From a virus, in the IMG/VR virus record IMGVR_UViG_3300029712_000001: a stretch of 64,000 nt of DNA; one strand, written 5' to 3'. Shown piece after piece: positions 1 through 45,786 of this stretch. The notes under the pieces were generated by a model, which was not told the DNA's origin, ran no database searches, and was given only the letters and a program-made list of their open reading frames with translations. Both the position numbers and the translations under genes were made by a program. Position 1 is the first letter of the stretch. The number at the start of each line of letters is the position of its first letter.

Positions 1-477
1 AGAAGAAGGAGACTGTTTGAACTACAACAAACGTATCGTAAAATAAACGATCTTCGATCAGATTTTCAATGGAAATTAGCTCATCAGTTATGCAAACAGT
101 ATGATTATATTTTTATTGAAGATCTAAACATTGAAGGAATGAAACGTTTGTGGGGAAAGAAAGTTTCCGATCTCAGTCATTCTTCTTTTATTGATAAACT
201 TACGTATGTTGCTTCAAAGTATGGAGTGATAGTACACAAGATTGACAAATGGTATCCTTCTTCCAAAACTTGTGAATGTGGCTGCATTAATAAAGGACTG
301 TCGTTACGCGACCGCACGTGGGTATGCCCGTCGTGCGGCGCGGTAAACGACCGTGATGTTCTTGCAGCCCGTAATATACTTCGGAAGGGCATTTCCGAAT
401 TGGAGAGTATGGGTGATTCCGGTTGCAGAAATGCAGGGGTTCCATACGTTTGTATCCAAGAATCCCATTTGCTTTAG
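1..477 (+). CDS. tnpB: TnpB (IS200/IS605-family OrfB RNA-guided nuclease), C-terminal part; 5' end cut by window edge
   Basis: Frame 1 is open from nt 1. About 90% aa identity to the complete 379-aa copy at 19454..20593. Zinc-finger CECGC...CPSCG and a DRDVLAARNIL RuvC-III-like motif. Confidence 0.9.
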   Translation, partial: RRRRLFELQQTYRKINDLRSDFQWKLAHQLCKQYDYIFIEDLNIEGMKRLWGKKVSDLSHSSFIDKLTYVASKYGVIVHKIDKWYPSSKTCECGCINKGLSLRDRTWVCPSCGAVNDRDVLAARNILRKGISELESMGDSGCRNAGVPYVCIQESHLL

Positions 478-30637: not shown

Positions 30638-30684
30638 TTAAGCTAAATTAAATCATTTTGAATCTTTTTTATTATCAAAAGACA

Positions 30685-36205: not shown

Positions 36206-36484
36206 ATGGGTAGATCGACAGAGTACTACAGGACTCATCCCGAAGCCAGGAAGAAAAAGGCTAAAAAGGACAAGGAGATAAATGCCAGACCGGAACAGAA
36301 AGCCAAACGCCGGGAGCTTGGTCGTAAAAACTACGAAACGGACAAGAAGAAAGGCAAAAGCTGGAGGAAAGGCAAAGATTGTTCTCATACCAAAAACGGT
36401 CTTAGGTATAAATCAGTAAAAGCTAATAGGGGATCCAAATCGGATACAAAAGGTGACAAAAATGCACGAGGAGATAGCAAATAG
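36206..36484 (+). CDS. Highly basic Lys/Arg-rich protein (92 aa)
   Basis: ATG ORF with about 40% K+R. Confidence 0.6.
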   Translation: MGRSTEYYRTHPEARKKKAKKDKEINARPEQKAKRRELGRKNYETDKKKGKSWRKGKDCSHTKNGLRYKSVKANRGSKSDTKGDKNARGDSK

Positions 36485-37586
36485 GATAGATATAAGAAGG
36501 ATATTCAAAACCTCCAAACAGGTTATGGAAGAGGCGTATGAGAATATCTTAAAATACAGGCGGGGAGAGCTTATCCCCGCTAAAACCGGATACGATTATA
36601 TTGATGAGGCTTTGCTTGGAGGTATTTTCCCTCAGCACGCTATTGCCATAGGAGCCCGGCCATCTGTGGGTAAATCGTATGTGGCCCAAAAGATATTGGA
36701 AAATGTGATGAATCCGATGATCAACCCACAAGCAGAAGATTATTTTCTTGTCAATTGCGAGTTCGAAATGAATCCTCAGGATCTTCTTCTTCGCAGAATG
36801 AGTCAGGATATGAAAAAACGGGCTCCTGAAATATTAAGAAGGCAAGATTCTAATACAGTAGAAGAGATGAGGATGTTTGAAATCCTTCAAGGTGAAATCA
36901 GGAATAATATAATATACATCGATGCTCCGTGTACGGTAAAAGAGTTTGAGGCGGCTGTATATCATATAGCTACTAAGCATAAAGACAAACGTCTTATAAT
37001 ATTTAAAGTCGATCATATTGCTTTGATAAAAAGAATGGGATTGGATCCTAAGTCGGCTATAGATGATTTGGTGGCGGTTATGAACGAAGCTAAATTAGTA
37101 TATAAAAACATATTTTTCCTCATCATATCCCAATTCAACAGAGAGATAGAAGGAAGGATAAAAAGCCCTCAAGAGCAGCCTCCCCGTCTTTCTGACTTTT
37201 ATCAGTCTGATACGCTGGGGCAACTATGTACGTTAATGATAGGTTTGCATAATCCTCGCAGATACGGGCTGGACAAGTATATGATATTTGGGAAAGACTG
37301 GTATCAGACTCTTGACCGGTTTAAAACTGAAAACAAAACATCATTCAGGACAGCCGGACTGGTGTTTCATCATATACTGAAGGTAAGGCAAGTTAGTATG
37401 GAAGAGCTTACTAATACAATCCACCCAGAGATCCTGCCGGGGCATGGATGGATGTACGGGGAGGGAGGGACGAAGTTCGTGAACCCCAACCAGCCGCCGA
37501 CGCCGCCCAAGCTCTATACTGTGGAAGACGTTACGAACAATCAAGATCAAGAACAAGAGGTAAAGGAAGAACAGTCAGTATATTAA
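36462..37586 (+). CDS. DnaB-like replicative helicase (C-terminal ATPase domain type)
   Basis: Walker A GARPSVGKS, Walker B IIFKVDHI, and ISQFNRE (DnaB H4-like). Confidence 0.75.
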   Translation: MHEEIANRIDIRRIFKTSKQVMEEAYENILKYRRGELIPAKTGYDYIDEALLGGIFPQHAIAIGARPSVGKSYVAQKILENVMNPMINPQAEDYFLVNCEFEMNPQDLLLRRMSQDMKKRAPEILRRQDSNTVEEMRMFEILQGEIRNNIIYIDAPCTVKEFEAAVYHIATKHKDKRLIIFKVDHIALIKRMGLDPKSAIDDLVAVMNEAKLVYKNIFFLIISQFNREIEGRIKSPQEQPPRLSDFYQSDTLGQLCTLMIGLHNPRRYGLDKYMIFGKDWYQTLDRFKTENKTSFRTAGLVFHHILKVRQVSMEELTNTIHPEILPGHGWMYGEGGTKFVNPNQPPTPPKLYTVEDVTNNQDQEQEVKEEQSVY

Positions 37587-38426: not shown

Positions 38427-39140
38427 ATGTACATCAATTTCAGACAACTTACAGCATCAGACATGACTCCTAATGATCTCGCTAATCTTCTTGCCATAAG
38501 ACAGAAGGATTCGGTTATGATCGAAGCCATACCGGAAGAAGATGCTGGTAGATATATAGAGCTTGGCCTGGTTGAGAAATTAAAATCAGGCGTGATGAGA
38601 TTAACCAACAAAGGAACGTCTTTTGTGAATTATATAGAGACACCGGAAATGACGGACGAGGTTCTGGAAACGTTGAAGATTATGATAGGAATGTACGAAT
38701 CGTATTCAAAAGACATAGGTGTCAGCAGAAAAGAAGCGGAATCCAGGTTGTGTTGGTTTATGGGTAACACCTCATTCAAGAAAGAGGTCATACTTCAGGT
38801 AACGGAATCTTATATAGCAGAGTCAGGAGATTATACAATGAGCTTATGTAACTTTATATGGAAACCGCCTTCTCAGGCTTTTTCAGTCCATATGAACCTT
38901 AAAAACTCAAAGCTCTTCGACTTAATAGCTGAAAAATTCAAGATCGCTACCGAGCCTTATTTGGAGTCTAAGAAGAATAAGGAAATGGATTGGTTGTTTG
39001 CCGTATCTAAATTGCCTACGCCGCCGGCTAAAGGCAATCCGGATTATTTGTTTACCGGAAGTTCTGAAACAGACAAAGAGAGATTGAAAAACATAAAAAC
39101 GTATTTATTTAACAAAATTAGAAAGCAATGGAAAAAGTAG
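38427..39140 (+). CDS. Hypothetical protein (237 aa)
   Basis: ATG ORF directly upstream of the ACP-like gene. Confidence 0.75.
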   Translation: MYINFRQLTASDMTPNDLANLLAIRQKDSVMIEAIPEEDAGRYIELGLVEKLKSGVMRLTNKGTSFVNYIETPEMTDEVLETLKIMIGMYESYSKDIGVSRKEAESRLCWFMGNTSFKKEVILQVTESYIAESGDYTMSLCNFIWKPPSQAFSVHMNLKNSKLFDLIAEKFKIATEPYLESKKNKEMDWLFAVSKLPTPPAKGNPDYLFTGSSETDKERLKNIKTYLFNKIRKQWKK

Positions 39141-39379
39141 AAATCAGAAAGATTATAGAGGATATAATTATTATTCAGTTTCTTAATTCAGAAATGGATA
39201 TAGTTCATGAAGAAGATGTGACGTTTAAAGAACTTGGATTAGATTCTCTTGATCAAATTGAACTTGAAATGATGGTGGAACAAAAATTCAATATTGTTAT
39301 TATTGATTATAATATGGAGACCATCAAAGATATGACTGATCTTGTTTACAAAACAATAACAGAAGGATATGGGAAGTGA
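39128..39379 (+). CDS. Acyl-carrier-protein-like protein (83 aa)
   Basis: FKELGLDSLDQIELEMMVEQKFNIVI matches the ACP phosphopantetheine-attachment helix (DSL Ser). Confidence 0.7.
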   Translation: MEKVEIRKIIEDIIIIQFLNSEMDIVHEEDVTFKELGLDSLDQIELEMMVEQKFNIVIIDYNMETIKDMTDLVYKTITEGYGK

Positions 39380-39863
39380 TATAATTTTATGCATGGCTTT
39401 AATAGCGTCATTTGCTTTTGTTATACAGTTTTTGTTGTCGATATTAGGATCTGATCTGGATACGGATATTGACATTGACAGTGCTTCTGATTTAAGCATG
39501 TCTTTGTCGGACATCATATCATTCAAGGGCATAACACATTTCATTCTTGGATATAGCTGGACTACTTACTTTTCGGGTTCCCATTTAGTAGGGGTTGTGA
39601 TAGGGTCGTTTTTCTTTATCGTTTTGTTTTACGTATATAAGTTACTTCTTAAGTTAAAGCAAGAAATGGTGTACGAATGTCCGGAAGATTTAAATGGCCG
39701 AGAGGTGGAGATAGTGTTTAGATCAGGGAAGAATCATTATATGGTAAATATTTCGAAAAATGGAAGACAGGAGCAAATGAGAGTAAGATGCTTGTCTGGA
39801 AAAACTTACAAAAACGGTGACAAGGTGAATATAAAATATGAAGAAGGAGAATTAAGTATCTAA
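39369..39863 (+). CDS. NfeD-like membrane protein (164 aa)
   Basis: Three N-terminal hydrophobic helices plus a C-terminal OB-like segment (GREVEIV...GDKVNIKYEEGELSI). Sits directly upstream of a flotillin gene, as in yqiJ-yqiK and yuaF-floT. Confidence 0.65.
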   Translation: MGSDIILCMALIASFAFVIQFLLSILGSDLDTDIDIDSASDLSMSLSDIISFKGITHFILGYSWTTYFSGSHLVGVVIGSFFFIVLFYVYKLLLKLKQEMVYECPEDLNGREVEIVFRSGKNHYMVNISKNGRQEQMRVRCLSGKTYKNGDKVNIKYEEGELSI

Positions 39864-39894
39864 TTTTTTTATCAACAATTAAATTTTAAAAGTT

Positions 39895-41595
39895 ATGACA
39901 ACAATCATGTACGTGTCAGCTATATTAGCTGTAGTGATTATTTTGACAATCATCGGAGTCTTATCAAGGTATCGTAGATGTAAGCCTAATCAGGTCTTGG
40001 TCGTTTATGGTAAGACAGGTGGGGAAAAGAAGTCGGCGAAATTATATCATGGTGGAGCGGCATTTGTCTTACCTATTATTCAAAGCTATGATGTTTTGTC
40101 AATGGAGCCTATGCAAATAGATTGCAAGCTTACCGGTGCTTTGTCATCTCAGAATATTAGAGTAGATGTACCTACAACCATTACAGTAGCTATCAGTACA
40201 AATCTCGAAATCATGCAAAATGCGGCAGAAAGACTTTTGGGGATGGATACCGAATCTACTGAAAATCTTATTACGGACATCGTTTACGGTCAGATGCGTT
40301 TGATTATTGCTGAAATGACAATCGAAAAACTTAATTCTGACAGGGATGAGTTTTTGGATAAGGCAAGAAAGAACATTGATAACGAGCTTAACAAGTTAGG
40401 TCTTTACCTCCTGAACATCAACATCAGTGACATCAGAGACGAAGCCGGTTATATTATGAACCTTGGTAAGGAGGCTGAAAGTAGGGCTCTGAACGAGGCA
40501 CAGGCTAATATCGAAGAACAGGAGAAGCTGGGTGCTATTAAGATTGCTGTACAGCAGAAGGAGAAAGAAACGGCTGTGGCTAATACCAAAAAAGAGCAAG
40601 AGATTCAAATTGCTTGTACTGAAAAAGAAAAGGAAACGATAGTAGCTGAAACGAAGAAAGAAAAAGAAATAGCTTTAGCTTTAACCGATAAAGAGAAACA
40701 GATCGGTGTAGCTCAAGCAGATAGAGACAGGGCTGCGGTTATCGCAAAAACTTTAACCGACAAGGAATCGGCGATCGTAAGATCTAAGGCAGAACTTGAA
40801 GTAAATAAAGCCGAGGCTGAAAGAATGGAAGAAGTCGGAAAGAATAAGGCTGAAGCTGACAAGGAAGCAGCTATAGCAATACAAGACTCTGAAGCTCAGA
40901 TTAAGAAGGCTGAGGCTGAGAAAAATGCGTCTATAGGATACAACAATGCCCAGAAGGAGGTTGCTGTATCAGTATCAGAACTACAGATCATCAAAGCTCA
41001 ATCAGAGAAGAAGGCCGGAGAAGAAAAAGTTAAATCGGAAGCGGCTGTAAAAACAGCAAAAGAGCTTGCCGACAAAGAAGTGGAAGAAGCTAAGGCTAAG
41101 AAAGTTCAGGCTGCGCTTAAGGCTGAAAAGATTGTGCCGGCTGAAACCCAGAAGGAAGAGGCTATCTTGCAAGCTGATGCCGAGGCCGAGAAGATCAAAC
41201 GCCGGGCTGAGGCTGAGGCAGCAGCACATTTGGCAAAAGCTGAGGCGGAGGCAAAAGCTATTCAGATGAAGCTGGAGGCAGAAGCCGAAGGTAAGAAAAA
41301 GTCGTTAATGGCAGAAGCCGACGGATTTAAGGCCATGGTGGAAGCAGCAGAATCCAATCCTCAGATCGCCATCCAATACAAGATGGTTAATCAGTGGAAA
41401 GAAATTGCCGGAGAACAGGTTAAGGCGTTCGAGCACATCAATCTCGGAAATATCACGGTATTTGACGGCGGTCAGAACAGTACCGGTAATTTCCTTAACA
41501 ATGTTGTCAAGACCGTCGCTCCGGCATTGGGAGTCATTGATCAGCTTCCGATTGCAGATACTTTAAAGAAGCTAAAAGGAGATGACAAAAAATAA
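39895..41595 (+). CDS. Flotillin / SPFH (band 7) family protein, YqiK/FloT-like (566 aa)
   Basis: N-terminal TM, then CKPNQVLVVYG...GGAAFVLPIIQ...IRVDVP...AAERLLG...GQMRLIIAEMTIEKLNSDRDEF...ISDIRDEAGY. A long Ala/Glu/Lys coiled coil follows. Confidence 0.9.
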   Translation: MTTIMYVSAILAVVIILTIIGVLSRYRRCKPNQVLVVYGKTGGEKKSAKLYHGGAAFVLPIIQSYDVLSMEPMQIDCKLTGALSSQNIRVDVPTTITVAISTNLEIMQNAAERLLGMDTESTENLITDIVYGQMRLIIAEMTIEKLNSDRDEFLDKARKNIDNELNKLGLYLLNINISDIRDEAGYIMNLGKEAESRALNEAQANIEEQEKLGAIKIAVQQKEKETAVANTKKEQEIQIACTEKEKETIVAETKKEKEIALALTDKEKQIGVAQADRDRAAVIAKTLTDKESAIVRSKAELEVNKAEAERMEEVGKNKAEADKEAAIAIQDSEAQIKKAEAEKNASIGYNNAQKEVAVSVSELQIIKAQSEKKAGEEKVKSEAAVKTAKELADKEVEEAKAKKVQAALKAEKIVPAETQKEEAILQADAEAEKIKRRAEAEAAAHLAKAEAEAKAIQMKLEAEAEGKKKSLMAEADGFKAMVEAAESNPQIAIQYKMVNQWKEIAGEQVKAFEHINLGNITVFDGGQNSTGNFLNNVVKTVAPALGVIDQLPIADTLKKLKGDDKK

Positions 41596-41734
41596 ATACA
41601 ATGGCCCAAGGTTACACTTGGGCCTAATTGAAGAAATAAAAGCAGCATTCATAGATTTCCTGCCTGCTGGAACAGTGATTTTAAGTGCTTTACTAATTAC
41701 GATATTTTTAACATGGATTTTGGACAAGATTTAG
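41582..41734 (+). CDS. Possible small single-TM protein (50 aa), below the ORF-track cutoff
   Basis: ATG overlaps the flotillin 3' end by 14 nt. Hand translation MTKNKYNGPRLHLGLIEEIKAAFIDFLPAGTVILSALLITIFLTWILDKI. Confidence 0.4.
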   Translation: MTKNKYNGPRLHLGLIEEIKAAFIDFLPAGTVILSALLITIFLTWILDKI

Positions 41735-41819
41735 AACCAGAAGAACTGACCAAGCATTATGATCAGTGTTATAACCCCAAATAGTATTAAACCAATATAA
41801 TTCTATTATAAAAGTTTAA

Positions 41820-42085
41820 TACATCTCTTTAAGAGATCGGGTTATTAGCCTAAGCCTTGAAACAAAGGCTACGTTATTTAAGAATAGATAGTTACCTACG
41901 GATGTTTACCCAAGTCTGTAGCTCTAAGGTAAGTGATTAAACAGTTCTGGTATTCAGGAACAGTGTTGCTTATTCAAAACCTTAAATAACATTGGCGATG
42001 GGTACTTACAGGAGAAATCCTGACTTATCCCTAACGGGATTTACATCTACCAAGGAGACCGAAAGGTCTCCGAGGGGATGTATTA
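41820..42085 (+). ncRNA. Structured RNA candidate with several GNRA-capped helices; class unknown
   Basis: Hairpins at 41823-41837, 41853-41870 (loop GAAACA), 41896-41921, 42009-42022 (GAAA), 42027-42040 and 42054-42071 (7 bp + GAAA). The last is enclosed by 42042-42047/42077-42082. No ORF present. Confidence 0.45.
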
Positions 42086-42128
42086 AAACATACGAATAGC
42101 TTTAAATATATTTAATAGAATATGGGAT

Positions 42129-42476
42129 ATGGAATTGATTTTGAAACAGAAGAAGAGGAGGATGAAGAGTATGACTGATGAGGAATTTGTATTGGATAAT
42201 AAGAAAAAGGTTGTTGCAAGAAAAAGAATATCTTATTTAAACAAAGGTGATAAAGTATGGATCGTGTCTTCCGACGGGTATCTGCTACACACGGACGTAG
42301 TTAGAGCCGAACGCGGATGGTCTTATGTGGAGATAGACGGGATTCTGTATTGGAAGCGAGGATTAGATGGCAAGCATCGTAATCGTAATAACTACATGCA
42401 GTTTGCCATGACACCAGAAGACGGTAAGAAGTATGTCGTATATTACCCGGAAGGATTTAAAGACAATGACTTATGA
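42129..42476 (+). CDS. Hypothetical protein (115 aa)
   Basis: ATG ORF. ATGA overlap with the next gene. Confidence 0.7.
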   Translation: MELILKQKKRRMKSMTDEEFVLDNKKKVVARKRISYLNKGDKVWIVSSDGYLLHTDVVRAERGWSYVEIDGILYWKRGLDGKHRNRNNYMQFAMTPEDGKKYVVYYPEGFKDNDL

Positions 42477-43492
42477 TGGTCCCGGAAACACATTTGCTAT
42501 ATAAGGAGTTTAATGGTGTGAAACGTCTTGCCATATCTTATTCCCAGATAGATACGTTTCTTACTTGTCCAATGAAATGGTATAAGACTTACGTAGAGGG
42601 TAAAAGGTCTACAGAAAAACAAGAAGCTACATCTTATGGTACGGTTATCCATAAAACACTGGAATACTTCTTTAAGAACGGAAGACAGCCTTCTGGTAAA
42701 GACCTTGGAGAAGCGATAAGTTACTATTCCTATCAAGAAGACATACCTTGGCAATCACCGGAAAATATGATGATAGCCATGAAACAATCTGGGGAGCTTC
42801 TTGCTTGGATTGTGGATCTGTTCAAAAAAGACGGCAATAGGTTTATGATAGCTGATAGTGATCTTAATCCCTGTGAGAAACTTATCAGACACGGCGCTAT
42901 AATTGGAGTCGAAGAAGATTTTGTGCTGCCGTATCGTCTTCCTAAGCCTGTTGATATAAATGGTGACGTTCATACACATGTGTACATAGTAGGATCGGTA
43001 GATCTTCATCTGGCTATAAAGAGCAAGAACGTAGTTCACCATTATGTCATAGATTGGAAATCAGGTAATAAGGTTTTTGATTCTAAGAAGTTGGAAACGA
43101 ATTTACAGCATCCTATATATTCGTTTTACATCTATAGAAAATATGGTGGGGTTCTACCAGATATGAACATCTATTTCTTTACCAGAACCAGGCAGTACCA
43201 AAAGGTTAAGATAGATGAAGAGCGTAAAACAAAATCTATAGAAATGCTAAATGACACTTTGTCTAAAATGTATGATTTTGAAGATAATAGTGTAAAAACA
43301 TTTCAAGCGTACATCCAGGGAGCAGAAGAAGCCAGGTATAGCAAGCGGCGCGCCACCCTAAGCCAGCCTGTTTCGCAAAACAAGCTACCCTGCCCGTCGG
43401 CGCTGTGTTATTATTGTGACTTTGGATTACATAACAAAAACGAATGCCCTTTCTCTTCAGATTGGGATCCGTCTAAAAAGATAAAACGATGA
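42473..43492 (+). CDS. Cas4-like PD-(D/E)XK exonuclease with Cys cluster (339 aa)
   Basis: LTCPMKWY (N-terminal Cys), GTVIHKTLEYF, GSVDLHL, VIDWKSG and LQHPIYSFYIY. C-terminal CPSALCYYC......C. Confidence 0.7.
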   Translation: MMVPETHLLYKEFNGVKRLAISYSQIDTFLTCPMKWYKTYVEGKRSTEKQEATSYGTVIHKTLEYFFKNGRQPSGKDLGEAISYYSYQEDIPWQSPENMMIAMKQSGELLAWIVDLFKKDGNRFMIADSDLNPCEKLIRHGAIIGVEEDFVLPYRLPKPVDINGDVHTHVYIVGSVDLHLAIKSKNVVHHYVIDWKSGNKVFDSKKLETNLQHPIYSFYIYRKYGGVLPDMNIYFFTRTRQYQKVKIDEERKTKSIEMLNDTLSKMYDFEDNSVKTFQAYIQGAEEARYSKRRATLSQPVSQNKLPCPSALCYYCDFGLHNKNECPFSSDWDPSKKIKR

Positions 43493-43988: not shown

Positions 43989-44375
43989 ATGGAAAAGAAA
44001 GTCACAATCAAAGAAGGAATGGATATTTTTTACAAAAATGCAGGGAAAGGTATATGGGTCTATATTGGACTTTTTGGAAATAAAGTGCTATCCATTTTAA
44101 AAAACAAAGGTGTTATTGCATGCGAAAACGATGCTGAATATTGCGTGTTGATGGATGGAGAAGATCATTTCATAAGTATAGCAAAAGACATGAGTCACGA
44201 CTATTGTTGTGAGTACGTTGTAGAAAGAGCAGAAGCCTACAGAGACTACCCCTCCAAAGGTGCTACATGCAGTGTATGCCTGTTTGAAGATAATGAGAAT
44301 AAGGCAAGGGAGATGTTGAAAGAGGCGATAATAGAACTTTCAAAAAATAATATAATAGATTGTGATGGGCTTTGA
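43989..44375 (+). CDS. Hypothetical protein (128 aa)
   Basis: ATG ORF. Confidence 0.7.
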   Translation: MEKKVTIKEGMDIFYKNAGKGIWVYIGLFGNKVLSILKNKGVIACENDAEYCVLMDGEDHFISIAKDMSHDYCCEYVVERAEAYRDYPSKGATCSVCLFEDNENKAREMLKEAIIELSKNNIIDCDGL

Positions 44376-45786
44376 ACTTAGACCTTACCAAAAAGAGGCA
44401 GTAGATGCCGGGCTTAAGTTTCTTACAGGAAGATCTAAGAAGCCTGGCATAATCGTAGCTCCATGCGGATGTGGAAAGAGCCTTCTGATATCCAAGATAG
44501 CACATGAAATAAATAGACCGACATTAGTATTACAGCCCTCAAAAGAGATTCTGGAGCAGAATTATGCGAAGGCCGTATCATTCGGTTCTGAACCTACTAT
44601 ATATTCTGCTTCATGTGGTATAAAGGAGCTGTCGGCTATGACTTATGCAACATTAAAGAGCATAAAGAAAGATGTAGCGAGGTTGAAGGATATAGGGATA
44701 GATACCTTATTGATAGATGAATGTCATTCAGGATATTCTCCTGAAGAAGGTTCTGAATTTATGGAGTTTATGAACGGGTTTCCAGAGGCGAAGGTGCTGG
44801 GCTTCACCGCCACTCCCTGCCGCCTCCGAACCTACAGTTCCATGCTGGAAGGAAACTATAGCAAGCTCAATATGCTGACGAAAGACGAGCATAATTTCTT
44901 CAAGAAAATAGTTCATGTGACTCAAATACAAGAACTAACCTCTCAAGGGTTTTGGTGTCCACTTAAGTACGAACGATGGTCGTTTGATGAATCGGCTCTG
45001 ATGTTAAACAGTACCGGAGCTGAATACACCAACGAATCTATTAAAGAAAGTATTGTAAGAAATGGCTTAAACAACTCTATCTACAAGCGCCTTCTTCAAC
45101 TTATGAACGAACGTAAAGCCATTTTGGTTTGCATGGATTCTATCGAATCATGTAATAGAATATCAGAGTTTATGAATGCCAAGATGGGAGCCATAACCGG
45201 TGTCGTAACATCGCTAACAACCAAAAAGAAAAGAGAACAAATTATATCAGATTTCAAAGAAGGTAAGTTGAAGGTGGTTTTTAATTATTCAACGCTTGCT
45301 ACCGGATTTGATTTTCCTGAACTTGATTGTGTGATGTTTGGTCGACCAACTTTCTCATATTCAACTTATTACCAAATATTAGGCCGCGCCGTCCGCATCC
45401 ATCCTGACAAGAAAGAGGCGCTGATAGTTGATTGCTGCGACAACATGAGACGCTTTGGTCGGATAGAAGACCTGACAATCGAGCAATTCCCTTCTAAGGG
45501 CTGGTGTATGTTTGCTGGCGATCAACTTCTGTCTAATATAAGGATGGGTGATATTATTACCAAAGACGAGATCCTTCGCCGGGCAGCCTCGCTTAAATCT
45601 GTGAATGGAGATGGTAGGAGAGAAGACGATCTTGACAGCATAATAATGTGGTTTGGAAAATATGAAGGAATTAGATTCAAGGACATACCGGTGTCGTATT
45701 TTAGGTTCTTGGCTGAGAATATGGCAGTAAAACCAGGAGACAGGAAAGAAAAGATTATCGAATATTATAATAGGATAAAGGCATGA
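44362..45786 (+). CDS. SF2 DEAD/DEAH-box (DECH) helicase, 474 aa
   Basis: Walker A APCGCGKS, LIDECH, GFTATP and QILGRAVR. C-terminal MWFGKYEGIRFKDIP tail (DUF3820-like). Confidence 0.85.
   Translation: MMGFELRPYQKEAVDAGLKFLTGRSKKPGIIVAPCGCGKSLLISKIAHEINRPTLVLQPSKEILEQNYAKAVSFGSEPTIYSASCGIKELSAMTYATLKSIKKDVARLKDIGIDTLLIDECHSGYSPEEGSEFMEFMNGFPEAKVLGFTATPCRLRTYSSMLEGNYSKLNMLTKDEHNFFKKIVHVTQIQELTSQGFWCPLKYERWSFDESALMLNSTGAEYTNESIKESIVRNGLNNSIYKRLLQLMNERKAILVCMDSIESCNRISEFMNAKMGAITGVVTSLTTKKKREQIISDFKEGKLKVVFNYSTLATGFDFPELDCVMFGRPTFSYSTYYQILGRAVRIHPDKKEALIVDCCDNMRRFGRIEDLTIEQFPSKGWCMFAGDQLLSNIRMGDIITKDEILRRAASLKSVNGDGRREDDLDSIIMWFGKYEGIRFKDIPVSYFRFLAENMAVKPGDRKEKIIEYYNRIKA

Follow-up and report, generated by a model that had tools for sequence, protein, structure and literature searches.

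A probable host-acquired flotillin operon, kept as an accessory cassette beside an apparently separate acyl carrier protein gene, in a crAss-like phage of the human gut

In Bacillus subtilis (YuaF-FloT, FloT being also termed YuaG) and in Escherichia coli (YqiJ-YqiK), the gene of a flotillin is immediately preceded by that of a partner protein with transmembrane (TM) helices and a C-terminal OB-fold (PMC2636767), and the flotillins themselves, FloT and YqiK, are composed of a TM anchor, an SPFH domain, a Glu/Ala (EA)-rich coiled coil and a Flot domain. YuaF and YqiJ have been tied by structure to NfeD (PMC2636767), which is encoded by the first gene of flotillin operons (PMC11222466). NfeD binds to the coiled coil of the flotillin through its OB-fold, and together the two proteins stabilize unfolded membrane proteins (PMC11222466); E. 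coli QmcA-YbbJ and Staphylococcus aureus FloA-NfeD, in which an OB-fold placed on the SPFH protein coiled coil stabilizes oligomers (PMC11222466), provide the mechanistic template for such pairs. Here we analyze a locus of this type in a 64,000-nucleotide stretch of viral DNA (IMG/VR record IMGVR_UViG_3300029712_000001; hereafter, the window). A first-pass annotation had grouped four co-oriented open reading frames (ORFs) of the window, coding for an acyl carrier protein (ACP), an NfeD-like membrane protein, a flotillin and a possible 50-amino acid TM peptide, into a single functional module, and all four are indeed present on the + strand. An annotated relative of the window is the csAssE-Sib phage (OR575929.1), a 151-kb Caudoviricetes genome from the human gut that is 96.9% identical to it in this region. 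Its record labels the three larger genes as 'acyl carrier protein', 'transmembrane protein' and 'flotillin family protein', so that neither the ACP call nor the flotillin call is new in itself. We consider it fairly probable that window positions 39369-41595 correspond to a host-acquired flotillin operon, in which the gene of an NfeD-like partner precedes that of a flotillin of the SPFH2 type, kept as an accessory cassette in an abundant crAss-like phage of ~150 kb (csAssE-Sib group), and that the neighboring ACP gene is separate from it.

The flotillin assignment was borne out by the 566-amino acid product of positions 39895-41595 (+), which exceeds the Pfam cut-offs for both PF01145 (SPFH/Band 7; 89.7 bits versus 23.6, residues 30-211) and PF15975 (Flot; 38 bits versus 27, residues 450-559). 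A hydrophobic anchor (residues 7-28) and an E/A/K-rich stretch (residues ~216-445) can be read directly from the sequence, and the full-length alignment with E. coli YqiK reveals the same domain order of anchor, SPFH, EA-rich coiled coil and Flot. The protein scores 145.9 bits with the NCBIfam FloT equivalog model (NF058507), the cut-off of which is 700, and is hence to be regarded as a member of the flotillin family and not as a FloT equivalog. Over its full length it is 64-67% identical (tblastn; 66-69% in MAFFT alignments) to the chromosomal flotillins of Bacteroides, Parabacteroides, Phocaeicola, Prevotella and their relatives, with 78-80% identity in the SPFH domain, 76-79% in the Flot domain and 44-47% in the coiled coil; the bacterial flotillins are 82-99% identical among themselves.

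A survey of Bacteroidales loci located a homolog of the phage partner gene directly 5' of the flotillin gene in 79 out of 80 instances, the sole exception being a locus whose sequence ends 50 bp upstream. Genes, order and orientation are the same in these operons as in the phage: in B. xylanisolvens (XB1A, locus L118), for instance, a 165-amino acid partner lies directly upstream of a flotillin of ~550 residues. The bacterial partners present the same TM helices, DxDxDxD loop and OB-fold and are 33-44% identical to the phage protein, with which that of B. xylanisolvens shares the IFLIQFxLS helix, the DxDxDxD and SFKGxxHF motifs and the beta-domain. The phage pair is located among phage replication genes and is flanked by an ACP gene and a small ORF, both of which are missing from the bacterial loci. 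Since a partner homolog stands directly upstream of a 64-69% identical flotillin in practically every host locus surveyed, sequence comparison identifies the pair as a captured Bacteroidales operon, carried by the phage as a two-gene unit. In neighbor-joining trees of the flotillin and of the partner, the phage clade falls in both cases outside the sampled Bacteroidales, as would be expected, together with the above identities, if the two genes had been captured once and jointly and had since resided in the phage for a long time. The possibility raised in the first-pass annotation, that the whole triad might be a captured host cassette, thus holds for the pair but not for the triad.

Between the two phage lineages in which the locus has been found, namely that of the window and a sister lineage, synonymous sites are saturated, and the flotillin and the partner retain 82% and 62% identity, respectively. 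Full-length copies are under strong purifying selection, and it follows that the phage uses the flotillin-partner pair; the deletions and truncations that segregate in nature indicate, in turn, that the pair is dispensable in some settings. Two of these deletions (window ~39695-41334 and 39641-41222) remove the C-terminal half of the partner and most of the flotillin and leave the ACP and its Ser40 intact, as does one deletion of the same parts in the sister lineage, the junction of which presents a 9-bp overlap. Altogether, at least four independent deletions hit the flotillin gene (in relatives L173, L175, L176, L177, L180, L183 and L184), three of them taking also the C-terminal half of the partner. 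In L180 the flotillin is gone entirely and the partner is retained, and some deletions yield in-frame partner-flotillin fusions (P0020, P0028, P0031 and P0033). Premature stops have likewise been identified in flotillin alleles at residues ~425, 470, 500 and 507, and on other contigs the protein is split into parts of 470 and 95 amino acids. The abundance of such alleles, with 348 and 172 members in two truncated or deleted flotillin clusters (P0161 and P0129) versus 2433 in the full-length one, weighs against a useful host-derived cassette and suggests that its value to the phage may be marginal.

Length variation in the flotillin is also found within the coiled coil (window ~40540-41230, residues ~216-445), which displays, among close relatives, a marked in-frame polymorphism giving rise to forms of 467-595 amino acids that retain both SPFH and Flot domains; internal duplications occur in two bacterial-type relatives (P0159 and P0169). 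At the other end of the gene, a run of six adenines (A6; window 41585-41590) lies within GACAAAAAATAA, where the flotillin stops and the 50-amino acid ORF begins. Rare variants in which the flotillin is extended ('...DDKKINTMAQGYTWA') or fused to the frame of the 50-amino acid ORF ('...KAAFIDFLPAGTVLY') match +1/-1 changes in this run. Phase variation at A6 was considered as a common mechanism at this junction and rejected, the six adenines being found in 87 out of 88 loci.

The partner gene (39369-39863, +; 164 amino acids) is separated from the flotillin gene by a 31-nucleotide spacer. In an AlphaFold2 (AF2) model, its product forms three helices (residues 2-25, 52-69 and 72-101) followed by a beta-domain, and it carries an acidic DxDxDxD loop and a C-terminal, five-stranded OB-fold. 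When modeled alone, the beta-domain reaches a pLDDT of 84.8 and its structural matches are all OB-folds. The best full-length fold match in the PDB, albeit a weak one (E 6.7e-3 over 119 aligned columns, with TM-scores of ~0.3), is YbbJ in the QmcA-YbbJ complex (8z5g), and YuaF (2k14) superimposes on the model with a TM-score of 0.61 on the target. Remote sequence similarity points in the same direction. The top PDB sequence hit of a partner-family profile is YuaF, matched weakly (E 0.035) across the whole beta-domain, and hhalign comparisons of the same profile with single sequences give similarly weak values for YbbJ (E 8.6e-4, probability 23.5%) and YqiJ (E 0.035). NfeD is the sole Pfam family matched at E <= 0.01 by more than one member of the partner family (2/83, best 6e-5), and at E <= 1 its model PF01957 is matched by four of the 83. 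As regards public annotation, the Bacteroides homolog is described as a 'membrane protein implicated in regulation of membrane protease activity', and one metagenome-assembled genome record labels the phage partner DUF1449, the label that is found on the E. coli YqiJ record. By sequence, the partner seemed at first limited to this phage lineage, but an exhaustive profile search extended the family to at least 408 representatives at 50% identity, mostly of 155-190 amino acids. This Bacteroidales flotillin-partner family, which bears the NCBI name 'hypothetical protein' (loci L088-L167; e.g. L118 3471-3968), is missed by current Pfam NfeD/YqiJ models and reveals a gap in the family models.

Several results weigh against an NfeD identity for the partner. 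The phage, sister-lineage and Bacteroides proteins give no match at E <= 0.1 to PF01957, YqiJ_N (PF21001) or YqiJ_OB (PF07290), curated models that the positive controls YbbJ and YqiJ pass and the partner fails, and the phage protein has no match in Pfam, NCBIfam, PHROGs or PADLOC. A profile of seven close homologs retrieved nothing among PDB sequences, and E-values in the fold searches are all above 0.001. An NfeD-specific match was also sought with the structure of the isolated beta-domain and discarded, the search having returned generic OB-folds only. Nevertheless, the individually weak lines agree with each other, and the architecture and operon position are those of known flotillin partners, on account of which we retain the label NfeD-like. 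The first-pass assignment to NfeD therefore stands in a restricted sense: this is the NfeD-type partner of the flotillin by architecture, synteny and weak remote similarity, without a match to PF01957. The protein is probably a remote homolog of NfeD, and by analogy it would probably work like NfeD.

The first gene of the locus (39128-39379, +) encodes a divergent, stand-alone ACP of 83 amino acids with the motif LGLDSLD. The first-pass reading of both the protein and its serine motif proved correct. The product scores 26.8 bits with PF00550, above the cut-off of 20.8 (the ACP of the sister lineage reaches 32.7 bits), it matches PHROG 5934 ('acyl carrier protein') with an E-value of 2.3e-10, and its PDB sequence matches are ACPs without exception (87/87). 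In the alignment with E. coli AcpP, LGLDSLD is matched to DSLD, and the aligned region extends through helix II, the acidic character of which is kept. The serine of the motif (Ser40; window codon 39245-39247, TCT), located at the start of helix II, is present in the window, in csAssE-Sib, in the sister lineage and in all 71 IMG/VR copies. The protein stays below every NCBIfam AcpP equivalog cut-off (best score 36.6 bits versus 92), and the distance to these cut-offs marks it as a divergent ACP and not as an AcpP ortholog, that is, the equivalog of fatty acid synthesis. Pfam scans of the 75 window ORFs of at least 95 amino acids and of the local ORFs (E <= 1e-3) yielded no phosphopantetheinyl transferase, acyltransferase, ketosynthase or ligase, in agreement with the first-pass statement that none of the first two is encoded nearby, and none of these enzymes is annotated in the 151-kb csAssE-Sib genome either. 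If it is a carrier at all, the phage ACP would have to depend on the host AcpS and on host enzymes.

The functional link between the ACP and the flotillin/NfeD pair that had been proposed in the first-pass annotation was not upheld. No ACP homolog lies within 4 kb of the flotillin operon in any of the 80 bacterial loci, the genes are lost independently and selection on them differs by about one order of magnitude: in the IMG/VR population, the ratio of nonsynonymous to synonymous polymorphism (N/S) is 2.27 for the ACP and 0.20 for the flotillin. The same ratio is 0.38 for the partner and 0.08-0.49 for other neighbors, the excess of the ACP over its neighbors corresponding to an odds ratio of 7.6 (p 3e-11). 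Taken together, host loci lacking an ACP, independent losses, unlike selection and the lack of acyl enzymes lead us to regard the ACP as an independent phage gene beside the captured operon. It looks like a separate, phage-specific and fast-evolving gene under weak constraint, and its adjacency to the pair would reflect the position of the cassette.

Some features of the locus argue, on the other hand, for a closer association. The order ACP-partner-flotillin is kept in 80 out of 80 IMG/VR relatives and in the sister lineage, and the adjacency and overlapping frames of ACP and partner, with the flotillin adjacent to them, are maintained in both lineages even though their ACPs are only 40% identical. 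Moreover, a close phage relative without the flotillin, which would show that the ACP is older than the capture, was not found among the matches listed: near-identical copies saturate both the IMG/VR and the protein listings, DnaB identity to the nearest relatives deposited is 25-29%, and the 237-amino acid upstream neighbor of the ACP has no other match. These points could be accommodated by a true triad, in which an ACP phosphopantetheinylated by the host AcpS and loaded by host enzymes would deliver acyl chains at flotillin/NfeD microdomains, thereby remodeling lipids locally for replication or assembly. Its DSLD and acidic helix II, retained despite 60% divergence between the two ACPs, and the presence of the three genes in every IMG/VR relative are compatible with such a role. 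We nonetheless consider it unlikely, given the ACP-free bacterial loci, the missing acyl enzymes in the window and in its annotated relative, the flotillin deletions that spare the ACP, the existence of Ser-less ACPs beside a retained flotillin and the disparate N/S values. Furthermore, triad co-occurrence was seen only in the two sister phage lineages, with no instance in the 80 bacterial loci or in Vibrio phage KIT04, and their conserved synteny may represent one ancestral arrangement and count as a single event.

The Ser-less ACPs come from the protein-database set, in which 21 of the 119 listed ACP variants have Pro, Phe or Tyr in place of Ser40; these variants are distributed over at least 81 contigs and 15 haplotype backgrounds. 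Their carriers include genomes of 145-154 kb and one NCBI record; the flotillin is often intact in the carriers, several of which keep an intact partner as well. The ORFs listed are full length; truncated ACPs would fall outside the top-scoring matches listed, and the full-length state of all copies is thus not established. Positions 39-41 of the ACP gather 53 of the 271 minority calls in this set, where ~10 would be expected, and positions 39-51, with the exception of 42, present 3-6 alleles each, most other positions having 1-2, although the variant list counts distinct sequences and hence inflates rare alleles. Helix II was accordingly examined as a hotspot of variability and dropped, the allele counts being raised in the protein-database set only and the comparison at the DNA level in IMG/VR yielding a Fisher p of 0.52. 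Relaxed or diversifying evolution of the gene as a whole is a robust conclusion; the replacement of Ser40 and the high N/S could be due to either relaxed constraint or diversifying selection.

Diversifying selection would be expected if the ACP acted mainly as a protein ligand, imitating host AcpP as a mimic or decoy and binding either an ACP-partner enzyme of the host or a defense sensor, with a dispensable prosthetic group, a fast-evolving surface and no dependence on the flotillin pair. The recurrent loss of Ser40 in near-complete genomes, the concentration of minority calls around it and the raised nonsynonymous polymorphism fit this explanation. We deem it improbable, however, since Ser40 is invariant in the 71 IMG/VR sequences, the helix II excess is not significant, an N/S of ~2.3 is equally expected from relaxed constraint, rare alleles are inflated in the variant list and truncated ACPs would be missing from the top-scoring matches. 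A bolder variant of the idea, to which we ascribe an equally low probability, is that of a non-carrier AcpP mimic with a diversified DSL/helix II surface and a repeatedly discarded serine, maybe acting with a phage flotillin scaffold that is co-assembled with that of the host. If true, this would imply an arms race in which the opponent is an ACP-binding enzyme or an immune sensor of the host, and a very abundant gut phage would be targeting two host hubs, ACP-dependent metabolism and membrane microdomains, from one small block of genes.

Returning to the captured operon, its mode of assembly and its role in infection are proposed here by analogy with the described pairs. With its N-terminal helix and SPFH domain, the flotillin would be attached to the cytoplasmic membrane, and it would oligomerize by means of its EA-rich coiled coil, to which the cytosolic OB-fold of the partner would bind, stabilizing the oligomer; the pair might then operate as a membrane-microdomain scaffold or as an ATP-independent holdase. 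In an infected Bacteroidales cell, the phage proteins could supplement, replace or co-assemble with the host flotillin, and the likely effect would be to preserve the function of membrane proteins and the integrity of the membrane while infection proceeds. Such a benefit would be conditional, because loss-of-function alleles segregate in nature. Instead of this general membrane support, the pair could conceivably serve in superinfection exclusion, counter-defense or defense. Like typical conflict genes, the cassette is indeed accessory and often lost; its products are membrane proteins, and the window holds other conflict-related domains (Tad2-like and Lar). We regard this as very unlikely, however, in view of a strongly purified flotillin with host-like SPFH and Flot domains, unlike fast-evolving conflict genes, and of the fact that the same pair constitutes a near-universal, housekeeping-type chromosomal operon in the Bacteroidales. 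An interpretation as a defense system was rejected, none of the four proteins having a match in PADLOC.

The last ORF of the locus (41582-41734, +), put forward in the first-pass annotation as a 50-amino acid TM peptide, does exist and overlaps the flotillin stop, and it contains a hydrophobic C-terminal segment (residues 29-47); as a gene, it is a weak candidate. It stops at 34 amino acids, before the hydrophobic segment, in 27 out of 80 close relatives, and the ORF that occupies the same place in the sister lineage (52 amino acids, also with a hydrophobic end) is 34% identical to it, with a dN/dS of 0.89. No match was found in Pfam, PHROGs, NCBIfam or PADLOC, and the ORF is absent from the 80 bacterial loci. 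Its status as a gene must hence be considered doubtful. The further claim that all the ORFs of the locus overlap holds for ACP and partner (11 nucleotides) and for flotillin and 50-amino acid ORF (14 nucleotides), but not for partner and flotillin; the upstream 237-amino acid gene overlaps the ACP by 13 nucleotides. Immediately downstream, the gap at 41735-42128 harbors a full-length HEARO RNA (Rfam RF02033; 41771-42009, +; 112.2 bits versus a gathering threshold of 83, E 2e-23) without an HNH/IscB ORF beside it. Some 355 bp around this element (~41773-42127) are missing from relatives L173, L177, L179, L180 and L183, and only ~25 nucleotides separate the genes flanking the site in csAssE-Sib. 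The region has the appearance of a HEARO element without an ORF, inserted polymorphically just 3' of the locus.

The ACP-partner-flotillin block sits within a replication and recombination gene cluster that comprises a DnaB-like helicase (36453-37586; PF03796), a PD-(D/E)XK exonuclease (42473-43492) and a ResIII/Helicase_C helicase (44362-45786). Elsewhere in the window, between positions 30658 and 63435, a Tad2-like (Thoeris anti-defense 2-like, PF11195) domain was identified in one ORF (E 7e-11) and a weak match to Lar restriction alleviation proteins in another; there are, in addition, a C-5 cytosine methyltransferase and a dATP/dGTP diphosphohydrolase, which suggests a set of counter-defense and DNA-modification functions near the replication genes. 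TnpB-type fragments are present at 139-474 (+) and in one further ORF within 139-30634 (Cas12f1-like TNB domain, E 1.1e-21; OrfB_IS605, E 4.1e-18), consistent with the annotated TnpB transposases of csAssE-Sib. In the record of the latter, ring and muzzle proteins of the crAss type are accompanied by carbohydrate-binding proteins of the BACON type and by a diversity-generating retroelement. In metagenomes of the human gut, this phage lineage is extremely frequent, and single protein variants are found on at least 1000 contigs. A literature search returned no publication on csAssE-Sib and none linking crAss-like phages with flotillin.

The phage flotillin is strongly constrained and near enough to that of the host for co-assembly. 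The locus may therefore offer a tractable, natural handle on the role of bacterial flotillin-NfeD pairs and on how crAss-like phages deal with the host membrane, and its natural deletion, truncation and Ser-less alleles constitute ready-made mutants that can be compared. When set against the closest known systems, the pair shares with YuaF-FloT and YqiJ-YqiK its gene order and the architecture of both proteins, and differs from them in the marginal similarity of the partner (E 0.035) and in its lack of Pfam YqiJ_N, YqiJ_OB or NfeD matches. It resembles QmcA-YbbJ in that, over its full length, the partner model finds its best structural match in YbbJ, and departs from it because QmcA is a stomatin-type and not a flotillin-type protein and because the gene order there is qmcA and then ybbJ. 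Among deposited phages, flotillin-like genes occur in only 11 of 50,697 records and mostly as fragments. The only other complete and annotated phage flotillin is that of Vibrio phage KIT04 (Demerecviridae), which comes from a lytic phage, contains an SPFH domain and is likewise annotated as a flotillin family protein. It is, however, 29% identical over half of the protein, has no Flot domain hit and lacks an ACP or NfeD neighbor, and it is an independent acquisition. In a similar vein, the ACP finds its counterparts in phage stand-alone ACPs (PHROG 5934; g153 of Yersinia jumbo phage fHe-Yen9-04), small type II-like proteins with a DSL motif encoded by large phages without obvious partner enzymes, although the identity with g153 is 45% over 49 residues only; the literature search retrieved no reported function for any of them. 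The best explanation for the combination of ACP and flotillin is hence that a host operon has been inserted next to a phage ACP gene unrelated to it, the pair itself being a rare case, in phages, of an operon type already known.

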